From Psychrobacter sp. HD31 (GTDB lineage: Bacteria; Pseudomonadota; Gammaproteobacteria; Pseudomonadales; Moraxellaceae), in NCBI RefSeq assembly GCF_051097895.1, contig NZ_CP142525.1:30001-62000 (forward strand): 32,000 nucleotides of DNA, given 5' to 3'. This document shows, one piece after another, positions 2,493 to 30,745 of this stretch; within the stretch, counting starts at the first letter, position 1, and each line of letters starts with the position of its first letter. The notes below the pieces were generated by a model. The model searched no databases. It saw only the letters and a list, made by a program, of their open reading frames with translations, and had not been told where the DNA came from. The position numbers and the translations under genes were made by a program.

Positions 2493-2527
2493 GTTCCTCC
2501 ACTTTTCAAGGGGAGGCTAGGAGGGGT
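2493..2527 (+). repeat. Left inverted repeat of the DUF559 cassette
   Basis: The sequence is GTTCCTCCACTTTTCAAGGGGAGGCTAGGAGGGGT. It also forms an internal hairpin, CCTCCACTT-TTC-AAGGGGAGG (9-bp stem, 1 mismatch). Confidence 0.85.
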
Positions 2528-2595
2528 TGACGAAGTTGGTTAGAAACAAAACTAGCCAGCCTCAAGAAACCTCCCAAAAAAACAGGAAAACCAAA

Positions 2596-2988
2596 ATGAT
2601 TGACAAAGTCTTTAATAAAAAAGACCAAAAATCAAAACGCAAACAACTAAGAAACAACGCCACCAGTCCAGAACAAATATTATGGCAATATCTGAAAGGA
2701 AAACAACTTGGCGTAAAATTTAGAAGACAATCTGGAATTGATGAATACATTGTAGATTTCTTCTCACCAGAAATTAAACTGGCTATCGAAATAGATGGTG
2801 AAAGTCATTTTAATGATGAAGCAAAACAATATGATGAACTTAGAACAGAATTTATCAACTCACTAAATATAGAAGTCATCAGATTTACAAATAAAGATGT
2901 AACTCAAAATATAATGGGCGTTTGTCAGGCAATAAGAGCAGTTATTAGCAGAAAACTGTTAGAACAGCAAATTCAGCTTAATGAATAA
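2596..2988 (+). CDS. DUF559 domain protein (Vsr/restriction-endonuclease-like fold)
   Basis: The motifs are family-typical: ATSPEQILWQYLKG..LGVKFRRQ, YIVDFF, LAIEIDGESH, YDELRTEF and VIRFTNKDV. I prefer the ATG at 2596 (AGGAAA RBS ~9 nt upstream) over the ORF-track TTG at 2527, which lies inside the left IR. Confidence 0.8.
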   Translation: MIDKVFNKKDQKSKRKQLRNNATSPEQILWQYLKGKQLGVKFRRQSGIDEYIVDFFSPEIKLAIEIDGESHFNDEAKQYDELRTEFINSLNIEVIRFTNKDVTQNIMGVCQAIRAVISRKLLEQQIQLNE

Positions 2989-2998
2989 GCTAACAAAA

Positions 2999-3033
2999 AC
3001 CCCTCCTAACCTCCCCTTGAAAAGTGGAGGAAC
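2999..3033 (+). repeat. Right inverted repeat of the DUF559 cassette
   Basis: The sequence is ACCCCTCCTAACCTCCCCTTGAAAAGTGGAGGAAC, the reverse complement of 2493-2527 except for one position (C2517 vs T). Confidence 0.85.
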
Positions 3034-3143: not shown

Positions 3144-4310
3144 ATGAATTTTTCTCTAAACGAAGACCAGCAAGCCTTTGCTGAACTTGCCAGCAACTTC
3201 GCCAGCAAATCAATGGCACCCTTTGCAGATGAATGGGACAAAACGGCTCACTTCCCAGTCGAGATGTTTAAAGAAGCAGGTGAACTTGGTTTCCTCGGCT
3301 TATACACCAACGAAGAAGTTGGTGGTATGGGCTTATCACGCTTAGATTCCTCCATCATCTTTGAAAAGCTTGCCTACGGTGACACCTCAGCAGCTGCCTT
3401 TATGACCATTCACAACATGGTCGCTTGGATGATTGGTGAATTTGCCAAACCAGAAGTTGCCGAAGCGTGGATTCCAGACATGATGACAGGTGATAAGCTT
3501 GGCAGTTATTGCCTAACGGAACCAAATGCAGGCTCAGACGCAGGCTCACTGACCACCAAAGCGGTGAAATCAGACGATGGCAAACACTACTTGCTCACGG
3601 GGCAAAAAATGTTTATCTCTGGTGCTGGAGCGACCGACGTACTGGTGGTCATGGCTCGCACAGGTGAAGACGGCGCAAAAGGCATTTCTGCATTTGTTGT
3701 CGACGCCAAAGCAGAAGGCATCACCTATGGCAAAAATGAACATAAAATGGGCTGGAAAAACCAACCCACTGCCGCCGTACATTTTAAAGACGTGAAAGTA
3801 CCTGCCAAAAACTTACTGGGCGAAGAAGGACAAGGCTTTACCTTTGCCATGAAGGGCTTAGACGGTGGGCGTATCAACATCGCCACTTGTGCAGTGGGGA
3901 CGGCTCAAGCCGCTCTGGAACGTGCCGTACAATATGTACAGGAACGTAGCCAGTTTGGACGTACACTGGATAAATTCCAAAACGTGCAGTTCAAACTTGC
4001 CGATATGCTAACCGAACTCACTGCCGCACGGCAAATGGTCAGACTGGCAGCATACCACCTAGACACAGGCAGTCCAGACGCCAGTAGCTATTGTGCAATG
4101 GCAAAACGATTAGCGACCGACCTCAGCTTTAAAGTGGCGAATGAAGCCCTACAGCTGCACGGTGGTTATGGCTATCTGCAAGAATACCCACTCGAACGCC
4201 ATGTGCGTGACTTGCGTGTCCACCAAATCCTTGAAGGCACCAATGAAGTGATGCGACTCATCGTCTCTCGTAAAATGATGGATATGGATACTTTAAAAAG
4301 AATGCAGTAA
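3144..4310 (+). CDS. Acyl-CoA dehydrogenase (isobutyryl-CoA dehydrogenase by context)
   Basis: 388 aa with YCLTEPNAGSDA and the C-terminal LHGGYGYLQEYPLERHVRDLRVHQILEGTNE. The AAGGA RBS lies 7 nt upstream. Substrate assignment is from operon context only. Confidence 0.88.
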   Translation: MNFSLNEDQQAFAELASNFASKSMAPFADEWDKTAHFPVEMFKEAGELGFLGLYTNEEVGGMGLSRLDSSIIFEKLAYGDTSAAAFMTIHNMVAWMIGEFAKPEVAEAWIPDMMTGDKLGSYCLTEPNAGSDAGSLTTKAVKSDDGKHYLLTGQKMFISGAGATDVLVVMARTGEDGAKGISAFVVDAKAEGITYGKNEHKMGWKNQPTAAVHFKDVKVPAKNLLGEEGQGFTFAMKGLDGGRINIATCAVGTAQAALERAVQYVQERSQFGRTLDKFQNVQFKLADMLTELTAARQMVRLAAYHLDTGSPDASSYCAMAKRLATDLSFKVANEALQLHGGYGYLQEYPLERHVRDLRVHQILEGTNEVMRLIVSRKMMDMDTLKRMQ

Positions 4311-4336: not shown

Positions 4337-4559
4337 AACAATTTTAAATATTTTGAAGCGGAAACCTGCTTTTCGCTTGTATCTTGCTACCCGATGGCGT
4401 TGCTCTCTATGGCTAAGTGCGTTTCAGACTTTGAGCAATCACCCTTAGCCATGTTCGCAATAGCCATCGGTCACACAAGGTGAGGAGGGAAATAGCGAAG
4501 CACTGCTTCGCCCCGACGCAAGGGAAAATTTGTAATTTTCCGCTTCAATCAGGGCTAAG
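4337..4559 (+). repeat. Structured intergenic repeat, copy A (MITE-like, no ORF)
   Basis: It is homologous to 8051-8219. It has perfect 12-bp terminal inverted repeats TTGAAGCGGAAA (4353-4364) and TTTCCGCTTCAA (4537-4548), and a central ~80-nt hairpin at 4391-4470. Confidence 0.75.
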
Positions 4560-4664
4560 TTCAACACCTCGTATTTTTTTGAATGTGTTTGGCTGTTTGA
4601 GGTAGGATTTTTTAAAGGTGCTTAAAAAGCACTCTAAAACTAACATCTTATAATAGGGATATTT

Positions 4665-5063
4665 ATGAAAAACCAAATCATCACATCTTTGACTTTCCAA
4701 GATGGAAATGCTGAAAACGCTATGAACTTTTATGTTGAGGTATTTGCAAACGCTCATATCATTAATGTGAACAGATGGGGTGAAAATGCACCTGTTGCAG
4801 AAGGTAAAATCATGCAAGCCACCTTTGAGATTAATGGCACTATCTTTATGTGTAGTGATAGCCCAGCGATACATAATTGGGATTTTAGCCCAGCTGTTTC
4901 AAATTACCTAGAATGTGATAATGAAGCTGAAATAGCTACTTTATTCTCGAAACTTTCTGAAAATGGCACTGTTACAATGCCATTAGACAACTATGGATTT
5001 AGTCAAAAATTTGCTTGGGTACTAGACCAATTTGGGGTGTCTTGGCAATTAAATTTGGCTTAA
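4665..5063 (+). CDS. VOC-superfamily protein, PhnB-like (3-demethylubiquinone-9 3-methyltransferase-domain family)
   Basis: 132 aa with ITSLTFQDGNAENAMNFYVEVF...ATFEINGTIFMCSDSP...DQFGVSWQLN, the pattern I associate with PhnB/PF06983 proteins. The AGGGA RBS lies 6 nt upstream. It is AT-richer than the flanking operon genes. Confidence 0.65.
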   Translation: MKNQIITSLTFQDGNAENAMNFYVEVFANAHIINVNRWGENAPVAEGKIMQATFEINGTIFMCSDSPAIHNWDFSPAVSNYLECDNEAEIATLFSKLSENGTVTMPLDNYGFSQKFAWVLDQFGVSWQLNLA

Positions 5064-5154: not shown

Positions 5155-5934
5155 ATGACGGACTACACCAACCTAGACCTATCAATAAACGGACATATCG
5201 CTAACCTCACTTTAAACAATCCACCAGCACACACATGGACACTCGACAGCCTAAAATCACTCAAACAACTTGTGGCAGACTTAAACGCCAATAAAAGCGT
5301 GCAAGCCCTAGTTATTCATGGTGATGGCGAAAAGTTCTTTAGTGCAGGGGCAGACCTAAATAGCTTTGCCAGTACAGACAAAGCACCAGCCACCGATATG
5401 GCGATTGCCTTTGGCGAAGCCTTTGAAGCACTATCAAACTTCCGTGGTGTTTCTATTGCCTGTATCAATGGTTATGCGATGGGAGGCGGACTTGAGTTTG
5501 CCCTAGCCTGTGACATTCGCATTGCCGAAGACCACGCCCAAATGGCACTGCCAGAACTGTCAGTTGGCTTGCTTCCTTGTGCTGGCGGTACACAAAACTT
5601 ACCTTGGTTAGTCGGTGAAGGCTGGGCAAAACGCATGATTTTATGTGGTGAGCGTATCAAGGCAGATAAAGCCTTACAAATTGGGCTGGTCGAAGAAGTG
5701 GTAGAAAAAGGCAAAGGGCTAGAAAATGCCCTCGCACTTGCCGAAAAGGTCGCCAAGCAATCACCCGATGCCATCGCTTCAAGTAAAAACCTCATCCAAT
5801 CGGCACGCACCAATCCACCACGCTATAATCTAATCAATGAGCGTGAAGACTTTATCAAACTATGGGACGGCGAAAACCAAATGGAAGGCGTGAATGCGTT
5901 TTTAGAAAAACGACCTGCTGAGTGGAAGGTTTAG
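5155..5934 (+). CDS. Enoyl-CoA hydratase (crotonase family; methacrylyl-CoA hydratase by context)
   Basis: 259 aa with FFSAGADL and GYAMGGGLEFALACDIRIA. The AAGGAAAA RBS is present. Confidence 0.88.
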   Translation: MTDYTNLDLSINGHIANLTLNNPPAHTWTLDSLKSLKQLVADLNANKSVQALVIHGDGEKFFSAGADLNSFASTDKAPATDMAIAFGEAFEALSNFRGVSIACINGYAMGGGLEFALACDIRIAEDHAQMALPELSVGLLPCAGGTQNLPWLVGEGWAKRMILCGERIKADKALQIGLVEEVVEKGKGLENALALAEKVAKQSPDAIASSKNLIQSARTNPPRYNLINEREDFIKLWDGENQMEGVNAFLEKRPAEWKV

Positions 5935-5940
5935 CATCAT

Positions 5941-6420
5941 ATGGCATTGATTCATGAGTTTACAACAGCCAAACAAGCTGATATTCAAAAAATCTTAGAG
6001 AATGTCAACTTACTAAGGGATGCAAGTGTTGTATCCCCAGTGGTTGGTATTCATGATGATTTTATCTTGTATTTTGCAGATTCGATGAAGTGGATAGAAA
6101 CTACTAATCCTAGAAAAAAGCCGGAAGAGCATATACCCCATCAGAGCTTATGCTACTATGGTCTTACTCTATTTCTACCTAATCAAGTGACGCAGTTTAA
6201 ACGTGTTATTGAAGCTTGGTATAGTATGTTTAGCCTAGCACCAGATGAGTTTATTATAACTGGTAGTTGGACAGAAGTTGTCGGTGAAGAAAATAGTGGT
6301 AAATATGACAAAATTAAAGCAATCAAAGCTGAAATTTTAGAAACATTATCAGAGCTAATTCAACTTTGTGTAGACGTGGAAAAAGATGACAGTTTGTGTT
6401 TATTCCATTGGGGAATTTGA
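5941..6420 (+). CDS. Hypothetical protein (no family recognised)
   Basis: 159-aa ORF starting 6 nt after the hydratase stop, with GGAAGG ~12 nt upstream. It is AT-richer than its neighbours, and I recognise no motifs. Confidence 0.5.
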   Translation: MALIHEFTTAKQADIQKILENVNLLRDASVVSPVVGIHDDFILYFADSMKWIETTNPRKKPEEHIPHQSLCYYGLTLFLPNQVTQFKRVIEAWYSMFSLAPDEFIITGSWTEVVGEENSGKYDKIKAIKAEILETLSELIQLCVDVEKDDSLCLFHWGI

Positions 6421-6811
6421 TAAAAACGCTATTCGATGAAGCGGTAGATGCTCTAAATACTGACACGTAGTCTTATCAGATGAAGAAAGTAAACTTATCG
6501 TTGATAAATTTGAAAGTTCATTCCCATTTTTATTGACTGGAAGTGGCAAAATTGATTGGAATAATATCCAGAAATATCAAACTATTAATACAATTTCTGA
6601 TATCTTATCAATCTAAAGTTACTCAATATCTAAAAACTGCTTTATTATATGGAATGACTCCTCTTTAGCAGTTATTCAAAGCAAATTAAGCCACGTCATA
6701 ACTGTATTTGATGATATAACAACAGTGAGTTTTGACACTTGGATATTTATTCCTGAGACAAACAATGTGATTGAAAACACATTTGGCAGTTTAAAAATTA
6801 CAACAAATTAA
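6417..6811 (+). pseudogene. Broken small gene (one frameshift near 6461-6470 and one in-frame TAA at 6614)
   Basis: Frame 0 reads (L)IKTLFDEAVDALNTDT* (6417-6470). The frame of 6464 then reads HVVLSDEESKLIVDKFESSFPFLLTGSGKIDWNNIQKYQTINTISDILSI*SYSISKNCFIIWNDSSLAVIQSKLSHVITVFDDITTVSFDTWIFIPETNNVIENTFGSLKITTN*. The text is protein-like across the disruptions. Its start overlaps the upstream stop (TTGA). Confidence 0.5.
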
Positions 6812-6842
6812 AGTTCGAATTTAATTTAACAAGGAAATAACG

Positions 6843-8039
6843 ATGAAGGAATCAACCGAAACCAACCAATCACAACCCATACTTATAGACACCATCGCCA
6901 CCGCTAGCGGTCATGCCATCGGCACACTGACACTCAACGACCCAAAGGCTCTGAATGCCCTGAGTGTCGACATGTGTCAGATGATAAGCAAGCAACTCAG
7001 CAACTGGCAAAATGACGATAACATTGTTGCCATTCTGCTTAAAGGCAGTGGTGACAAAGCATTCTGCGCAGGAGGCAATATCCGCAAACTGTATGAAAGC
7101 ATGCTGGATAATCCACCCATGCCCAACCCTTACGCCGAAGAGTTCTTCTCCAGCGAATACAGCCTATTCCGCCAAATGCACTTCTATAACAAACCCATTG
7201 TCCTATGGGCGAACGGCATCGTCATGGGCGGTGGCATGGGATTAATGGCAATGTGTAGCCACAGAGTGGTTACCGAAACCACCCGTTTTGCCATGCCAGA
7301 AATCACCATCGGACTCTACCCAGATGCCACAGGCAGTTGGTTGCTACAACGCTTCCCTGCCAAGCTTGGGCTATTCCTGGGATTAACAGGTGCTAACTGC
7401 AATGGAGCAGATGCCTTAATTGGCAACATGGCTGAGTTTGCTGTTACCAGTGAGCAATATGATGACATGGTACACGCCTTGAGTAGTGCCGATTGGGCAA
7501 ACAGTGCTGACTTACATGACACCGCCAGCCAAGCCCTCGCCACCGTCCACCATACTGAGCAACTTGCCGAAAGCAACCTTATCAACCACTGGCAAGCCCT
7601 ACAAGCCATTGTCAACGCAGGTGACATTCATGCCATTGACCAAGTCTTACAAAATGCCGAATTAGCCGAAAAATACAAAGATGACAAATGGATGAGCCGA
7701 GCCATCAGCACCTATCAGCATGGTTGCCCTGTGACTGCTGGATTGACTTTTGAGGCATTTAAACGAGCCAAAAAACTGTCACTTGAGCAAATCCTATATA
7801 TGGAAATGAACCTATCACTGCATTGTGCCAACAACCCAGACTTTAGAGAAGGTGTGCGAGCCTTGCTTATCGACAAAGACCGCACCCCAAAATGGAGTAA
7901 AACTCTTGCCGAATGTGGTGGTAAAGAAGGGCGTTCCTATATCGACTCGCACTTTAACTCACCCTATGATGAAGGGAAGCATCCCTTTGAAAACTGGTTA
8001 GATAATGGTAGCAAATCAGCAGACTTGGTGAACATTTAA
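6843..8039 (+). CDS. 3-hydroxyisobutyryl-CoA hydrolase (ECH_2 crotonase subfamily)
   Basis: 398 aa with FCAGGNI and NGIVMGGGMGL, plus the long C-terminal extension typical of HIBYL-CoA hydrolases. The AAGGAAA RBS is present. Confidence 0.88.
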   Translation: MKESTETNQSQPILIDTIATASGHAIGTLTLNDPKALNALSVDMCQMISKQLSNWQNDDNIVAILLKGSGDKAFCAGGNIRKLYESMLDNPPMPNPYAEEFFSSEYSLFRQMHFYNKPIVLWANGIVMGGGMGLMAMCSHRVVTETTRFAMPEITIGLYPDATGSWLLQRFPAKLGLFLGLTGANCNGADALIGNMAEFAVTSEQYDDMVHALSSADWANSADLHDTASQALATVHHTEQLAESNLINHWQALQAIVNAGDIHAIDQVLQNAELAEKYKDDKWMSRAISTYQHGCPVTAGLTFEAFKRAKKLSLEQILYMEMNLSLHCANNPDFREGVRALLIDKDRTPKWSKTLAECGGKEGRSYIDSHFNSPYDEGKHPFENWLDNGSKSADLVNI

Positions 8040-8050
8040 ACCGTTTTTTA

Positions 8051-8219
8051 AACAGTTATTGAGTTTTTGGAGCGGAAACCTGCCATCCGCTATTATCTTG
8101 CTTGCTGATAGCGTGTGTTCTATGTGCCTGAGTGCGTTCCAGACTTTGAGCGACCATCCTCAACCACAGACCACATCACCATCAGCTTCACAAGGATAAC
8201 CGCTACTGTCAGGGCTAAA
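8051..8219 (+). repeat. Structured intergenic repeat, copy B (shorter; degenerate right end)
   Basis: It is homologous to 4337-4559 and shares the same start (TTGGAGCGGAAACCTGC) and end (TCAGGGCTAA). The central hairpin at 8105-8185 has an apical 26 nt that is 22/26 identical to copy A. It lacks ~55 bp that are present in copy A. Confidence 0.75.
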
Positions 8220-8353
8220 CCGCTCTCATTGCATAATTTGAGTTTCATAACTCGACACCAACACACTAACTAAAGTTCACAAACAACACAAATAGTAGGC
8301 AAACCCTACATATTCCTCAATAAGGAAATTCACTCAACACAAGGAATGTAACT

Positions 8354-9277
8354 ATGAGTAACGTAAAAACTTCTATCCAAACAATCGGCTTTATCGGACT
8401 TGGCAACATGGGTAAACCGATGGCAGATAACCTACTTAAAAATGGCTTTTCACTAAAAGTCTTTGACCTTAACGAAGCTGTTCTTGCTCAAATGGCAGAG
8501 CAAGGTGCAACAGTCTGCGACTCTCCAATTAGTGCCACCACAGATGTCGATATGGTCATCAGCATGCTCCCAGCAGGTCAACACGTCAAGAGCGTTTATC
8601 TTGGTAGTGATGACAGTACAGGCGTATTTGACAGTTTAGACCCAAGCACCCTCGTTGCTGACTGTAGCACCATTGCAGCAGCCGATGCCAGAGCTGTTGC
8701 CGAAGTCGCTAAACAAAAAGGCATTCAGTTTGTCGATGCACCTGTATCAGGTGGTACAGGCGGTGCAACAGCAGGCACGCTTACCTTTATCGTTGGTGGT
8801 GAAGCAAAAGCTTTTGACCAAGTAAAACCAGTGCTAGAAGCCATGGGTAAAAATATATTCCACGCTGGCGACCACGGAGCAGGGCAGGTTGCTAAAATCT
8901 GTAACAACATGCTGTTGGGCATTTTAATGTCTGGCACAGCAGAAGCCATCAATCTAGGCGTGAAAAATGGCTTAGACCCAAAAGTTCTCTCTGATATCAT
9001 GCTTCAAAGCTCAGGGCGTAACTGGACATTAGAAGTTTACAATCCTTATCCAAACGTCATTGATACCGTACCATCGAGCAAGGGTTACACAGGTGGATTT
9101 ATGAGTAAGCTGATGCTAAAAGACATGAACCTAGCCAAAACCACAGCTGATGATACGGGCGTGCAAACCCCAATGGCTGACCAAGCTCGTGATATGTACA
9201 CCGCTCATGTTGAAGACCATGCGGATGCTGATTTTTCTAGTATCATGGCGGTATTTGATGACAGTGTTTTAAAGTAA
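8354..9277 (+). CDS. mmsB: 3-hydroxyisobutyrate dehydrogenase
   Basis: 307 aa with the N-terminal IGFIGLGNMGKPMA Rossmann motif and GAGQVAKICNN. It sits in the operon with mmsA. Confidence 0.92.
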   Translation: MSNVKTSIQTIGFIGLGNMGKPMADNLLKNGFSLKVFDLNEAVLAQMAEQGATVCDSPISATTDVDMVISMLPAGQHVKSVYLGSDDSTGVFDSLDPSTLVADCSTIAAADARAVAEVAKQKGIQFVDAPVSGGTGGATAGTLTFIVGGEAKAFDQVKPVLEAMGKNIFHAGDHGAGQVAKICNNMLLGILMSGTAEAINLGVKNGLDPKVLSDIMLQSSGRNWTLEVYNPYPNVIDTVPSSKGYTGGFMSKLMLKDMNLAKTTADDTGVQTPMADQARDMYTAHVEDHADADFSSIMAVFDDSVLK

Positions 9278-9302
9278 TTTGTTAAACTATAAAAAATACA
9301 TA

Positions 9303-9340
9303 GCCCCACAAATTAAATAATTTGTGGGGTTTGTTATTTA
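9303..9340 (+). terminator. Rho-independent terminator after mmsB
   Basis: GCCCCACAAATT (9303-9314), an AAAT loop and AATTTGTGGGGT (9319-9330) form a perfect 12-bp stem followed by T-rich sequence. Confidence 0.8.
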
Positions 9341-11143: not shown

Positions 11144-11950
11144 ATGACAAACATTAATTATCAACCTCCTCACAGCAATCAAGGCAGTCACTCTGCTAGT
11201 GATGTCCAGTCACCTGTCCCTTTATTTGGTAAAAAGGGTACTGTTGTATTAGCGATAGCTTCGGTATTGGGCTTTCTTGGTGTACAGGTAATTAGTCTTT
11301 TACTTGCCTTATTGATAACCTTCGTTATCATGCCAAACAAAATTAAGGATATCGATAACATTATCCCTTTGTTATCTAGCGACGGGACGATATTAAGCAT
11401 ATCACTCATCTTTAATTTATTGGCAGTCATCTTGATTGTGTTTTTTGTTATCAAGTCTCGCAAAAAACAGTTTACAGATTATTTGCAGTTTAGGCGTTTT
11501 TCATTAAAAAACATGCTATTTGGTTTTGGGCTTTGGATTGCTTATTTGATTGCCAGTGCCGTGGTGCTTTCTTTGATAGATAGTCAACCGATGGGTTTTT
11601 TAGATGCCTACTTCCTTAGTGCAGAGCCTTTGTGGTTGTTATTCCTTGGTGTTGTTTTGTTAGCACCCATTTATGAGGAGTTGCTATTTAGAGGTTTGAT
11701 TTGGCGAGCAGTTTTTGAGCAATTTTTAGATGAACGAAAAGGGGCAATTGTCGCCAGTGTATTGTCAGGGGTATTATTTGCGATTATCCATTTTCAATAT
11801 GGTTTTCATGAAATTGGTGCAATTTTTGTGTTTGCACTGGTTTTAGGATTTATTCGCTATCGTTCTGGGTCTATTTTGTTACCGATAATGATACATATTG
11901 CGAATAATGGGTTGTCGATGCTTCAGTATGCGTTGATTATGAACCCGTAA
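11144..11950 (+). CDS. CPBP family intramembrane glutamic endopeptidase (CAAX protease/Abi-like)
   Basis: A polytopic hydrophobic protein with EELLFRG, FAIIHF and IHIANN motifs. Confidence 0.85.
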   Translation: MTNINYQPPHSNQGSHSASDVQSPVPLFGKKGTVVLAIASVLGFLGVQVISLLLALLITFVIMPNKIKDIDNIIPLLSSDGTILSISLIFNLLAVILIVFFVIKSRKKQFTDYLQFRRFSLKNMLFGFGLWIAYLIASAVVLSLIDSQPMGFLDAYFLSAEPLWLLFLGVVLLAPIYEELLFRGLIWRAVFEQFLDERKGAIVASVLSGVLFAIIHFQYGFHEIGAIFVFALVLGFIRYRSGSILLPIMIHIANNGLSMLQYALIMNP

Positions 11951-12322: not shown

Positions 12323-13318
12323 TCAATTTTTTTGAAGTTCGTTGATTGTAAAAAGCTTTTGGCTACTATAGAAATCACAGTTTTTTTCTTTAAAATTAAC
12401 GTAAATTATTGGGTTTTCTAGTGTTGACTTAATGGAAAAGTCAATTGTATGAATTACCTCACAATCTGGGTCTTTACTCATAATATCTTGAGCTTTATAT
12501 AAAAACGGAATAAATTTACGATATTTATCTTTTACTCCTTTTTCATAGATTGCACACTCATCTATTAAGCTCAGAGGTATTATGTTTTCTTTTTCATTAT
12601 TTAAAAAAGGGTTCTCCATAGGTTTAGCAAATAGATTATAACTATTAGTGTCTTGAACTATCTGATTAAATTTTATATCTCGATTAGCTAGCAATTTTAG
12701 AATATTATTTCTGTCACTCAATGATGATTTGAGTCCAAAATAAATTGCCTTAATAGCTCCATGTCTATGAAAGTTTTGACCTACTTGATGACTTATGACT
12801 CTAACTTCTTGTTCATTTTGCCAGTCAATATGCTTAGTTCCTATGATTTTTTGAAATAATTTATTTTCAGATGTCTCATCTTTAAAATTTAAGTTTAAAT
12901 TAGAAAAACTAATATCTTGTGGTTGTATTAAATACTGAACTTCGAAATAGTTGTAATATGTTTTGTGCTTAGCAATTAATTCATCAATATCATATTCTAT
13001 ACAAAAGCCTTGGTGGCTATTGGCATATAATGACCAAAGAGGTTGAATAAATGGTGACTTACTAGCAGAAAATATTCCCTGCTTAGCAACCATTGCTATG
13101 ACATCATCTAAATTCTCTTCAAGCGTATTAAATTGGGCAGAACCTTGGATTAATTTTGAGATAAAGTTTAATCCTTGCAAGTCATTAGAAAGCTTCTTAC
13201 GTGTAAAAAAGCCTTCACAAGGATCATTTAATGAAGCTTTATCTGCTAACCAAATATAATTTTCTTTAAGGCTCTTTAAGTTGTTATCATTAAACGTTCG
13301 ATATTTAAAAATTCTCAT
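12323..13318 (-). CDS. DUF2971 family protein
   Basis: Family-typical motifs are present: IFKYRTF..L..L..NYIWLADKASLNDPCEG, LWSLYANSHQGFCIEYD, HIDWQNEQEVRVIS and IKAIYFG. I prefer the ATG at 13318 (GAGGG RBS ~9 nt upstream) over the ORF-track start at 13393. Sampled 60-nt lines are 25-32% G+C versus ~48% in uvrB. Confidence 0.75.
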   Translation of the reverse strand: MRIFKYRTFNDNNLKSLKENYIWLADKASLNDPCEGFFTRKKLSNDLQGLNFISKLIQGSAQFNTLEENLDDVIAMVAKQGIFSASKSPFIQPLWSLYANSHQGFCIEYDIDELIAKHKTYYNYFEVQYLIQPQDISFSNLNLNFKDETSENKLFQKIIGTKHIDWQNEQEVRVISHQVGQNFHRHGAIKAIYFGLKSSLSDRNNILKLLANRDIKFNQIVQDTNSYNLFAKPMENPFLNNEKENIIPLSLIDECAIYEKGVKDKYRKFIPFLYKAQDIMSKDPDCEVIHTIDFSIKSTLENPIIYVNFKEKNCDFYSSQKLFTINELQKN

Positions 13319-13399
13319 AAGAATTACCCTCGCTAATATACAGTGATGAAACTTAATTTGTTGGTTATGATTATTTAAATACCAACTTATCAAGATTAA

Positions 13400-29830: not shown

Positions 29831-30745
29831 ATGGCAATTGCCAGCTTATTAACTTTACTTGACGATATTAGCTTGATTATGGACGATGTGTCTGTAATGA
29901 CAAAAGTTGCTGCTAAAAATACGGCAGGTGTATTGGGGGATGACTTGGCACTAAATGCCGAGCAGGTAACTGGTGTGCGTGCTGAAAGAGAGTTGCCCGT
30001 TGTTTGGGCAGTTGCTAAAGGCTCCTTTATTAATAAGCTAATTTTAGTACCCGCAGCATTGGCATTGAGTTGGGTTTATCCACCGCTCATTACTTTTTTA
30101 CTAATGTGTGGTGGTTTATTTTTATGTTACGAAGGTGCAGAAAAAGTATTACACAAATTTTGGCCACATTTGTTAGCACATGATGAAGCGCATGAAGCCC
30201 ATAAAAAAGCCAATGCCGATGATAGTGTTGATATGGTTGAATTTGAAAAAAATAAAATTAAGGGTGCGATTCGTACAGACTTTATTTTATCGGCAGAGAT
30301 TATTGTTATTGCCTTAGGCTCAGCTGTTGGAGCGAGTTTGTTAACTAAGTCTATTATGCTGGCAATTGTTGCAATTGGTATTACGATAGGGGTATATGGG
30401 TTGGTTGCCTTGTTAGTAAAAATGGATGATGCGGGACTGCATCTAACTAAAACCAATAGCAAAGCAAAACAACAAGTGGGTCACTTATTATTGATGGCAG
30501 CACCAAAACTGATGAAGTTTTTATCTATTGCAGGTACAGTTGCAATGTTTTTAGTTGGTGGTGGTATTTTAGTGCATGGTTTTAGTTTTTTACATCATGG
30601 TGTCAAACATATGGCCGAATTTTCTGGTATTTTTGCTGGCGTCACTGAGTCTGTGTTAAACGGATTAGCTGGGCTAGTTATTGGTGTTGTGGTTGTTGCA
30701 ATTATGAGTATTATCGCTCGAGTTAGAGGATACAAGGCGCATTAA
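29831..30745 (+). CDS. yedI: DUF808 inner-membrane protein (YedI family)
   Basis: The N-terminus SLLTLLDDISLIMDDVSVMTKVAAKNTAGVLGDDLALNAEQVTGVRAERELPVVWAVAKGS closely matches my memory of E. coli YedI. The AGGAG RBS is present. Confidence 0.88.
   Translation: MAIASLLTLLDDISLIMDDVSVMTKVAAKNTAGVLGDDLALNAEQVTGVRAERELPVVWAVAKGSFINKLILVPAALALSWVYPPLITFLLMCGGLFLCYEGAEKVLHKFWPHLLAHDEAHEAHKKANADDSVDMVEFEKNKIKGAIRTDFILSAEIIVIALGSAVGASLLTKSIMLAIVAIGITIGVYGLVALLVKMDDAGLHLTKTNSKAKQQVGHLLLMAAPKLMKFLSIAGTVAMFLVGGGILVHGFSFLHHGVKHMAEFSGIFAGVTESVLNGLAGLVIGVVVVAIMSIIARVRGYKAH

Follow-up and report, generated by a model that had tools for sequence, protein, structure and literature searches.

A 32,000-nucleotide stretch of contig NZ_CP142525.1, deposited as Psychrobacter sp. 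HD31 (positions 30,001 to 62,000; hereafter the window), carries two copies of a non-coding repeat element within an operon for valine catabolism, copy A (4337-4602) behind the acyl-CoA dehydrogenase gene acd and copy B (8051-8270) behind the 3-hydroxyisobutyryl-CoA hydrolase gene hibch. Both belong to a dispersed family whose members each form one long imperfect hairpin, rather than being defined by two short terminal repeats, and which constitutes a sub-threshold, long-stemmed variant of the Rfam motif Flavo-1 (RF01705), its closest known entity, in a phylum new to that motif. The best reading, which we hold with a probability of roughly one half, is that of a Flavo-1-type, non-autonomous repeat element that is recognised through its hairpin. 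Flavo-1 has been listed in Rfam since 2010 without a function, and a transcriptome study failed to link it to transcripts. Filled and empty sites, a rule of position and orientation, swapped variants and decay products, as found in the present family, are what a decision between an RNA gene and a mobile DNA hairpin would require.

Extent, fold and relationship to Flavo-1

The sequence-only reading that first described the two repeats had placed them behind acd and hibch, where they indeed lie, and had read their start motif TTG(A/G)AGCGGAAACCTGC and their end motif TCAGGGCTAA correctly. Over ~145 nucleotides (nt), copies A and B align without gaps in one block of 64 nt at 75% identity and another of 80 nt at 70%, and the 20-mer GTGCGTTYCAGACTTTGAGC common to both occurs exactly twice in the window, with 0.00 occurrences expected from 100 shuffles. 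The block of copy A that has no counterpart in copy B comprises ~59 bp, close to the ~55 bp estimated before. However, TCAGGGCTAA and the like, which had been taken for the element ends, are internal landmarks, and conservation runs ~45-50 nt past TCAGGGCTAA, reaching 4602 in copy A and 8270 in copy B. As had been proposed, neither copy contains a credible open reading frame (ORF). A small peptide initiated at the NTG before GAGCGG was considered and rejected, since its stops are inconsistent: the frame closes after 13 to more than 60 codons, depending on the copy, and the second codon is TAG in the RCMY copies (see below).

A scan of metagenomes with the 5' motif AGCGGAAACCTGCYNTYCGCT returned 34 stretches, of which ~30 are real copies with unrelated flanks at ~20 distinct loci, and four look like chance matches in coding DNA. 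The real copies stem mostly from the same metagenome projects as the closest (93%) relative of the window. The covariance model R1, built from four copies, retrieved at least 24 full-length copies (E<=1.6e-6) together with many truncated ones and with copies that the pattern had missed. Within the 32-kb window there are just two copies, which would be compatible with a local segmental duplication of operon spacer or with chance similarity; this explanation is refuted by the dozens of copies at unrelated loci and by a shuffle expectation of 0, so that the ORF-less repeat family postulated from the window alone stands as a dispersed one. Among 185,579 species-representative genomes the exact 20-mer gave only two chance matches (a metagenome-assembled genome (MAG) of Eubacteriales, and Iodobacter), and the element had no match in plasmid or phage collections. 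Scans of viral contigs, made with the ends of the element and with the nested module of copy A, yielded one chance match and one copy of an IS3-family insertion sequence (IS). Searches of the literature, aimed at repeats of Moraxellaceae and at the exact sequences, gave nothing relevant; MITEAba12 is a different element, of the type with terminal inverted repeats (TIRs) and target-site duplications (TSDs).

Every copy folds into one long hairpin. When 24 copies are aligned with the covariance model, pairing in the stem helices amounts to 78-93%, and almost every pair has changes on both sides. When a Flavo-1-style structure is imposed, 90.4% of the cells are paired, compared with 67.0 +/- 1.0 in shuffles and 34-47% in slid controls, 34 of the 40 pairs show changes on both sides, and compensatory cells number 209 against 61.5 +/- 6.6 in shuffles. 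The alignment to Flavo-1 further implies an outer helix in which, on the operon strand, CCUG and two bases pair with two bases and CAGG. This helix is 95.8% paired, although it lies outside the model that made the alignment; its dinucleotide alternates between TT/AA, CA/TG and TA/TA, and in one variant CCUG/CAGG is replaced by CUCG/CGAG. Inside it, two CCGCU-containing loops (operon strand) oppose each other across the helix. Two earlier attempts at the structure were discarded. MAFFT combined with RNAalifold on 22 copies misaligned the hypervariable arms and returned stem fragments only, and was replaced by the covariance-model alignment. A local hairpin, P1, followed by a separate long stem was likewise abandoned: P1 barely varies, and its 3' arm belongs to the long-range outer helix, as is evident from the Flavo-1 alignment and the covarying dinucleotide, so that P1 would at best be an alternative fold. 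As to the strand, the one antisense to the operon, on which Flavo-1 is read, has the more stable fold in 18 of 22 copies; the difference averages 7.4 kcal/mol (Wilcoxon p=4e-4), and taking the long stem by itself does not alter this result.

Copy A as a whole (4337-4602) consists of an AT-rich leader, the hairpin core, a nested module and a 3' tail, and is assigned to the - strand, which for both copies denotes the Flavo-1 reading, antisense to the operon. Its 5' conserved block TGAAGCGGAAACCTGCTTTTCGCTT (4354-4378) contains the outer-helix arm CCTG + TT and one CCGCT-type loop, and can also be folded locally as the 9-bp hairpin P1. It is followed by the long stem of ~32 bp with the semi-conserved apical loop GTGCGTTTCAGACTTTGAGCAATCACC (4379-4480), delineated by single-sequence folds and stem-helix covariation, by the nested 59-nt module of two hairpins TGAGGAGGG...GTAATTTT (4481-4539, + strand), which lies outside the family consensus, and by the 3' conserved block CCGCTTCAATCAGGGCTAA (4540-4558), which holds the second of the CCGCT loops together with AA + CAGG, an arm of the outer helix. 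The tail, type 1 (GTTCAACACCTCGTATTTTTTTGAATGTGTTTGGCTGTTTGAGG, 4559-4602), is defined by homology to the tails of other copies and also follows CAGGGCTA in L018, L019, L022, L029, L036, L041, L043, L044 and L045. Behind it lies a small REP-like hairpin GGTGCTTAAAAAGCACT (4617-4633), which is present, either as such or as full REP/REPIN forms (REP, repetitive extragenic palindromic), behind the tail of 8 other copies. R1 matches copy A at 4354-4493 with 67.5 bits, the match being shortened by the nested module.

Copy B (8051-8270, - strand), composed of leader, hairpin core and type-2 tail, is matched by R1 at 8068-8218 with 110.3 bits (E=6e-21). Its 5' conserved block TGGAGCGGAAACCTGCCATCCGCTA (8068-8092), its long stem and apical loop (8093-8199; folds and stem-helix covariation) and its 3' conserved block CCGCTACTGTCAGGGCTAA (8200-8218), of which TG pairs with CA at 8084-8085, are followed by the tail ACCGCTCTCATTGCA... 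(8219-8270), which includes a third CCGCT and is common to L025, L021, L028, L026 and L032.

The original description of Flavo-1, in 2010, drew on 239 examples, nearly all from Flavobacteria; it rated the motif a likely RNA on account of its covariation and variable-length stem, and presumed it to be a small RNA (sRNA) (PMC2864571). Rfam types the motif as 'Gene; sRNA'. In Flavobacterium its matches lie sense or antisense of transcribed regions without distinction and many are untranscribed (PMC9723704), a pattern that fits a DNA-level element. The gathering cutoff of Rfam for Flavo-1 is 42 bits, and the matches reported here come from a scan with a relaxed threshold. At the gathering threshold nothing is listed for the window; the best sub-threshold match is copy B (8072-8220, - strand, 41.0 bits, E=1.3e-7), and copy A is matched at 4358-4560 (- strand, 21.4 bits, E=0.038), L022 with 33.9 bits and 15 further copies with 28.3-40.7 bits. 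In all copies tested the match is full-length (1-76/76) and on the same strand, and the marginal shortfall below the cutoff is largely due to an insertion of 73-88 nt in the terminal stem. Among the Rfam families, which include the hammerhead and other ribozymes, Flavo-1 is the only match. For annotation, this means that sub-threshold Rfam matches on the 'wrong' strand can reveal such repeats.

The consensus alignment shows that the Flavo-1 loop nucleotides UAGCC, GAUUGUAGCGG, AUCC, AGAU and AGCGGAAAGC are also present in the elements. Like Flavo-1, the elements are nested hairpins with covarying helices, in which two conserved internal loops oppose each other and the length of the terminal stem varies, and both are multi-copy. 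By contrast, the terminal stem comprises 73-88 nt here and ~5-15 nt in Flavo-1, the Moraxellaceae elements possess an additional conserved 5' block GGAGCGGAAA and a 3' tail, and they occupy a strict site behind stop codons that has not been reported for Flavo-1. The host also falls outside the known range of Flavo-1, being a gammaproteobacterium of the Moraxellaceae, whereas Flavo-1 occurs in Bacteroidetes and a few Spirochaetes.

Insertion sites, orientation and turnover

The acd protein of the window shares 93% identity with a protein of two MAGs labelled 'Gammaproteobacteria' and of Psychrobacter sp. HD31; the figure drops to 79-85% for Moraxella osloensis with its related clusters and to 71% or less for typical Psychrobacter. 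A look-up by exact protein sequence gave no record for the acd of the window or for the Psychrobacter sp. HD31 protein. The proteins neighbouring the elements are likewise of Moraxellaceae type, with Psychrobacter sp. HD31 and Moraxella osloensis as the closest named organisms. On the strength of the acd identities, the host therefore represents a poorly sampled, Moraxella-like lineage within the Moraxellaceae. In its closest relative (93%; L003/L007) a related element is found behind acd and none between hibch and mmsB. In relatives of 85% identity (L047-L050) the junction between acd and the enoyl-CoA hydratase gene ech spans 31 nt and that between hibch and mmsB 38 nt; the corresponding values are 58 and 33 nt at 83% identity (L006), and 29 and 34 nt at 81% identity (L005, M. 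osloensis cluster). Such junctions of 29-58 nt at both sites in three outgroup lineages show copies A and B to be insertions relative to tight ancestral junctions. For copy B, the ancestral hibch-mmsB spacer of the window (TAAAGTTCACAAACAACACAA) matches that of M. osloensis and picks up again as TAAAGTTCACAAAC at 8271, so that copy B is an insertion of ~230 nt placed directly after the stop codon.

The boundaries differ from those of a classical miniature inverted-repeat transposable element (MITE), which is the architecture that had been suggested. A perfect 12-bp repeat (4353-4364 and 4537-4548) is present in copy A as described, but it is not a family-wide TIR: the last three T's of the module at 4481-4539 supply 3 of its 12 bases, and the complementarity shared by the family, GGAGCGG with CCGCTNC, extends over no more than 6-7 bp, with interruptions in the majority of copies. 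No TSD was found at any copy with comparable flanks. L018 and L019, for example, carry the same variant at different loci with unrelated flanks, and their similarity begins exactly at TGGAGCGG and stops ~70 nt after CAGGGCTA; likewise, comparison of copy B with the ancestral junction discloses no TSD beyond a possible TAA. What the family does share with MITEs is its dispersed copies and their presence/absence polymorphism. The window encodes no transposase, and neither there nor in the plasmid and phage collections was a parent IS or transposase with the same ends found.

With the element oriented as first read, that is, on the operon strand, the nearest upstream ORF is co-oriented in 18 of the 19 copies with enough upstream sequence (about 16/17 when counted by independent loci), and the element starts 12-150 nt after the end of this ORF. 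Elements often border variable accessory or defence genes. Behind the element at the acd-ech junction the window has a VOC-family gene and L003 four other genes, and at another site the cargo is AIPR in L021 and DUF7716 in L028. A third hotspot is seen in the RCMY contigs (L023, L027, L034, L038, L040 and L042), which represent one chromosomal locus between a 2-hydroxyacid dehydrogenase gene and a convergent core gene and contain, between two inverted elements, six different defence cargos: AIPR, GmrSD, Thoeris ThsA/ThsB, a methylase with an ORC/CDC6-like protein, SIR2, and a STAND-like protein. Variability at this hotspot begins directly after GGCTAAAC. Because the six contigs are one locus between convergent core genes, the inverted pairing may be incidental. 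A relaxed pattern scan for Xer/pdif sites (28-bp XerC-spacer-XerD) gave none associated with the elements, and scans for intrinsic terminators and promoters called nothing at them.

Canonical REP/REPIN sequences (GTAGGGTGCGTTGCACGCACC; GTAGGTTGGGTTGAGG...AACCCAAC) cluster beside the elements, namely in L029, L036, L041 and L013, in L003 at 11185-11215, and in the window at 4617-4633 and 8295-8309. This clustering suggests that a system of the RAYT type (REP-associated tyrosine transposase) may be active in the lineage.

The family shows several signs of turnover. The truncated copies L042, L026, L041 and L014 are simple microhomology deletions. Different long stems occupy the same locus in L043 and L045, in L022 and L041, and in copy A of the window and L003, and where the stems differ wholly at one locus the flanks are still ~95% identical; conversely, the same stem is found at different loci in L018 and L019/L045. 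Judged by these alignments, the stem differences at shared loci point to exchange of variants or to repeated insertion.

Mode of spread and alternative explanations

The family comprises lineage-restricted non-coding elements of ~175-230 nt, long-stemmed relatives of Flavo-1, of which a single strand folds into one long hairpin. This hairpin is built from the outer helix, the two opposing CCGCU loops (AGCGG on the Flavo-1 strand), further inward a short AUCU/GGAU helix, the ~32-bp stem, whose sequence varies while its pairing is kept, and a semi-conserved loop of 26-29 nt. The elements insert directly behind stop codons in a fixed orientation, vary in presence between close relatives, break down through microhomology deletions and host other small repeats. 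We infer a non-autonomous repeat, whose spread or exchange most likely takes place at the DNA level and would involve an enzyme that recognises the folded single strand, as for REP/RAYT or IS200/IS605, because TSDs and real TIRs are lacking and one strand is preferred; copy-to-copy recombination may add to it. The insertion polymorphism, the decay products and the nested repeats, together with the absent TIR and TSD, are the grounds for a repeat of folded single-strand DNA. With both copies located within the valine operon, its mRNA necessarily includes the 32-bp stem, which could plausibly serve as an RNase III site or as a barrier to exonucleases, presumably as a side effect and not as the selected function.

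Among known systems, REP/REPIN-RAYT repeats are similar in being short non-coding intergenic hairpins that lack a TSD and gather behind genes. A G(T/G/A)AG tetranucleotide next to the paired region (GTAGCGG on the Flavo-1 strand) may correspond to that of REPs, and canonical REPs adjoin many copies of the element. By contrast, the element is far longer, with conserved internal loops and an apical loop, contains GTAGCGG, GGAGCGG or GAAGCGG at two to four places in a geometry unlike that of canonical REPs, and is oriented, whereas REPINs are symmetric; no RAYT was identified in the window. Folding of the single strand into hairpins, a conserved structure with variable sequence, adjacency to exchangeable cassettes and a fixed orientation relative to genes are shared with the attC sites of integrons. 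However, the boxes RYYYAAC/GTTRRRY are absent as far as can be read from the sequence, the copies are solitary or in inverted pairs and not in arrays, no integrase was seen, and the attC pattern is inverted, with a conserved loop and a variable stem. The palindrome-associated transposable elements (PATEs) derived from IS200/IS605 also lack inverted terminal repeats and duplications, depend on hairpins for recognition and are strand-specific, but the present elements have no conserved target motif of 4-5 nt on their 5' side. They also lack hairpins that match at the left and right ends, and neither TnpA nor TnpB is encoded close by. Enterobacterial repetitive intergenic consensus (ERIC) and Correia sequences form imperfect palindromes, 100-170 nt long, in intergenic DNA that is transcribed, with size variants that arise from internal insertions, and repeats of this type are co-transcribed and have known effects on mRNA stability or RNase III processing. 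The likeness of the elements to these and similar MITE-like repeats of enterobacteria and Neisseria lies in their palindromic nature, intergenic location and variable size; the latter, though, have true TIRs, in Correia also TA duplications, and copies that are alike in sequence, whereas the stem sequence here is hypervariable and pairing alone is kept.

Several observations weigh against recognition of a folded DNA strand by an enzyme as the whole explanation. No candidate for the enzyme is at hand, as the proteins of the window include no transposase, recombinase or RAYT, and the exact core 20-mer has no genuine match in the species representatives searched. Counting G-U against A-C fails to pick a strand, the ratio being 64 to 27 overall and about equal once three fixed wobble positions are left out. 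A bias between replication strands alone would hardly produce co-orientation in 18 of 19 copies; either an oriented insertion target or selection on orientation, which would hint at a function, may be involved. The conserved internal loops and the semi-conserved apical loop could equally reflect a functional RNA. As the strict orientation is unexplained by the single-strand DNA model alone, readings at the RNA level stay alive. In one of these, rather unlikely in our estimate, the element acts in cis in the sense transcript, as a hairpin in 3'-untranslated or intercistronic RNA that serves as mRNA stabiliser, RNase III site, weak terminator or insulator. The distance of 12-150 nt from a co-oriented stop codon, the location of both window copies in one operon and in its orientation, and the covarying ~32-bp stem, which would be a good RNase III substrate, argue for such a role, and, read from the sequence, P1 together with the UUGUAUCUU behind it looks like a weak terminator. 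It is at odds, however, with the greater stability of the antisense strand and with the definition of the homologous Rfam motif on that same strand; many copies are decaying, outgroups run the same operon without the element, the terminator scan called neither copy, and Flavo-1 in Flavobacterium follows no orientation rule relative to transcripts. The converse idea of a trans-acting sRNA gene, transcribed antisense to the upstream gene, corresponds to the class given to Flavo-1 by Rfam and would agree with the better fold of the antisense strand and with loop nucleotides conserved across phyla. We consider it highly improbable: the label of Flavo-1 is a presumption, no conserved promoter or terminator is seen on the antisense strand, flanking sequences are unrelated from one copy to the next, copies with hypervariable stems number in the dozens and many are truncated, and in the window the transcript would run antisense into acd and hibch.

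Two further readings operate, like the preferred one, at the DNA level. In the model put forward by the sequence-only reading, the element would be a classical MITE, derived by internal deletion from a DDE-type IS with TIRs and TSDs and mobilised in trans. In its favour the element starts with 5'-TG, the 5' end TGGAGCGGAAACCTGCT, compared with the internal ...AGCAGGATACCGCTACA in reverse complement, agrees at about 14-15 of 17 positions, the 3' CCGCTCTCA of type-2 copies mirrors TGGAGCGG, and TAA stands on both sides of the insertion of copy B. It is nonetheless very unlikely, given that no comparison between loci revealed a TSD, that conserved sequence extends 45-50 nt beyond the putative right repeat, that the perfect 12-bp repeat of copy A is partly made by the nested insertion, and that no IS with these ends occurs in the plasmid or phage collections; moreover, in a neutral MITE the pairing of a 32-bp stem would not survive so many double changes. 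The label would fit only loosely, in the sense of a multi-copy, non-coding, mobile-looking repeat without TIR or TSD. Alternatively, by analogy with attC or with the pdif modules of Acinetobacter, the element might serve as a landing pad for recombination, or as a boundary, where accessory and defence cassettes are exchanged. Variable cargo directly after the element at three hotspots (acd-ech, L021 versus L028, and the RCMY locus) and insertion of the nested module, too, at CAGGGCTA^ are consistent with this. Yet such a role seems quite unlikely, since the RCMY contigs are one locus, where the inverted pair may be two elements behind convergent core genes, cargo is missing at copy B and several others, neither Xer/dif-like sites nor attC R or L boxes nor a recombinase were seen, and permissive intergenic regions collect repeats and islands anyway.

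The nested module and other features of the window

The 59-nt module of copy A (4481-4539) appears to be an independent small insertion element that is separate from the repeat family, because it is absent from copy B and occupies other positions in related copies. In order, its parts are TGAGGAGGG, the hairpin GCGAAGC-ACT-GCTTCGC between GGG/CCC clamps, CGACGCAAG and another hairpin, which is variable. The module stands behind CAGGGCTA in L003, L007 and L039, and inside the long stem in L021 and L028; L013 (empty) and L039 (filled) are one locus with respect to it. Module copies measure 59-62 nt; the one in L003 lies at 11390-11450, and others are found in L009 at ~2497-2560, in L010 at ~2500-2560, and in L012. 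The first 44 nt recur at 45 places in 26 plasmid records of Moraxella, Psychrobacter or Acinetobacter, where the copies sit inside the orfA of IS3-family elements. Alignment of filled and empty copies of this IS shows that the empty ones read CTAAAAAAGGC, which is the frameshift heptamer A AAA AAG, and the filled ones CTAAA[TGAGGAGGG...GCTCGAGT]TGGC; filled and empty pairs occur at CTA^AAAA sites. On Moraxellaceae plasmids, this 59-nt element splits the site of programmed frameshifting in IS3-family transposase genes. The module has no match in Rfam or in the literature. A joint proposal, possible if on balance unlikely, would combine the module with the hairpin family: Flavo-1-type hairpins would be cross-phylum mobile or recombinogenic elements recognised as folded single-strand DNA, and not sRNAs. 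In this Moraxellaceae lineage they would insert in one orientation behind stop codons and mark the borders of exchanged accessory and anti-phage cassettes, and the module would be a distinct, tiny mobile element with runs of A as its target, among them the A AAA AAG heptamer of IS3.

The window has a G+C content of 40%, and its + strand carries the valine-catabolism operon, with mmsA (615-2111), acd (3144-4310), the VOC-family gene (4665-5063), ech (5155-5934), an ORF of 159 aa without assigned function (5941-6420), hibch (6843-8039) and mmsB (8354-9277), after which the terminator scan called a terminator-like hairpin (9302-9331). It presents a tidy catabolic operon that is colonised at every junction by repeats and accessory genes. 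Between mmsA and acd, within 2493-3033, lies an ORF for a DUF559 (Vsr-like endonuclease) protein (2527-2988), flanked on both sides by 36-nt inverted repeats that are 97% complementary; elsewhere, the mmsA-acd junction is occupied by DUF2834 in L003/L007, by EamA in L006, and by nothing in L005 or L047. The 420 nt without an ORF between the 159-aa ORF and hibch (6420-6843) have the look of a decayed gene, because relatives hold 13-42 nt there or between ech and hibch. Outside the operon, a DUF2971 gene on the - strand (12323-13393), directly downstream of uvrB, is probably an accessory insertion.

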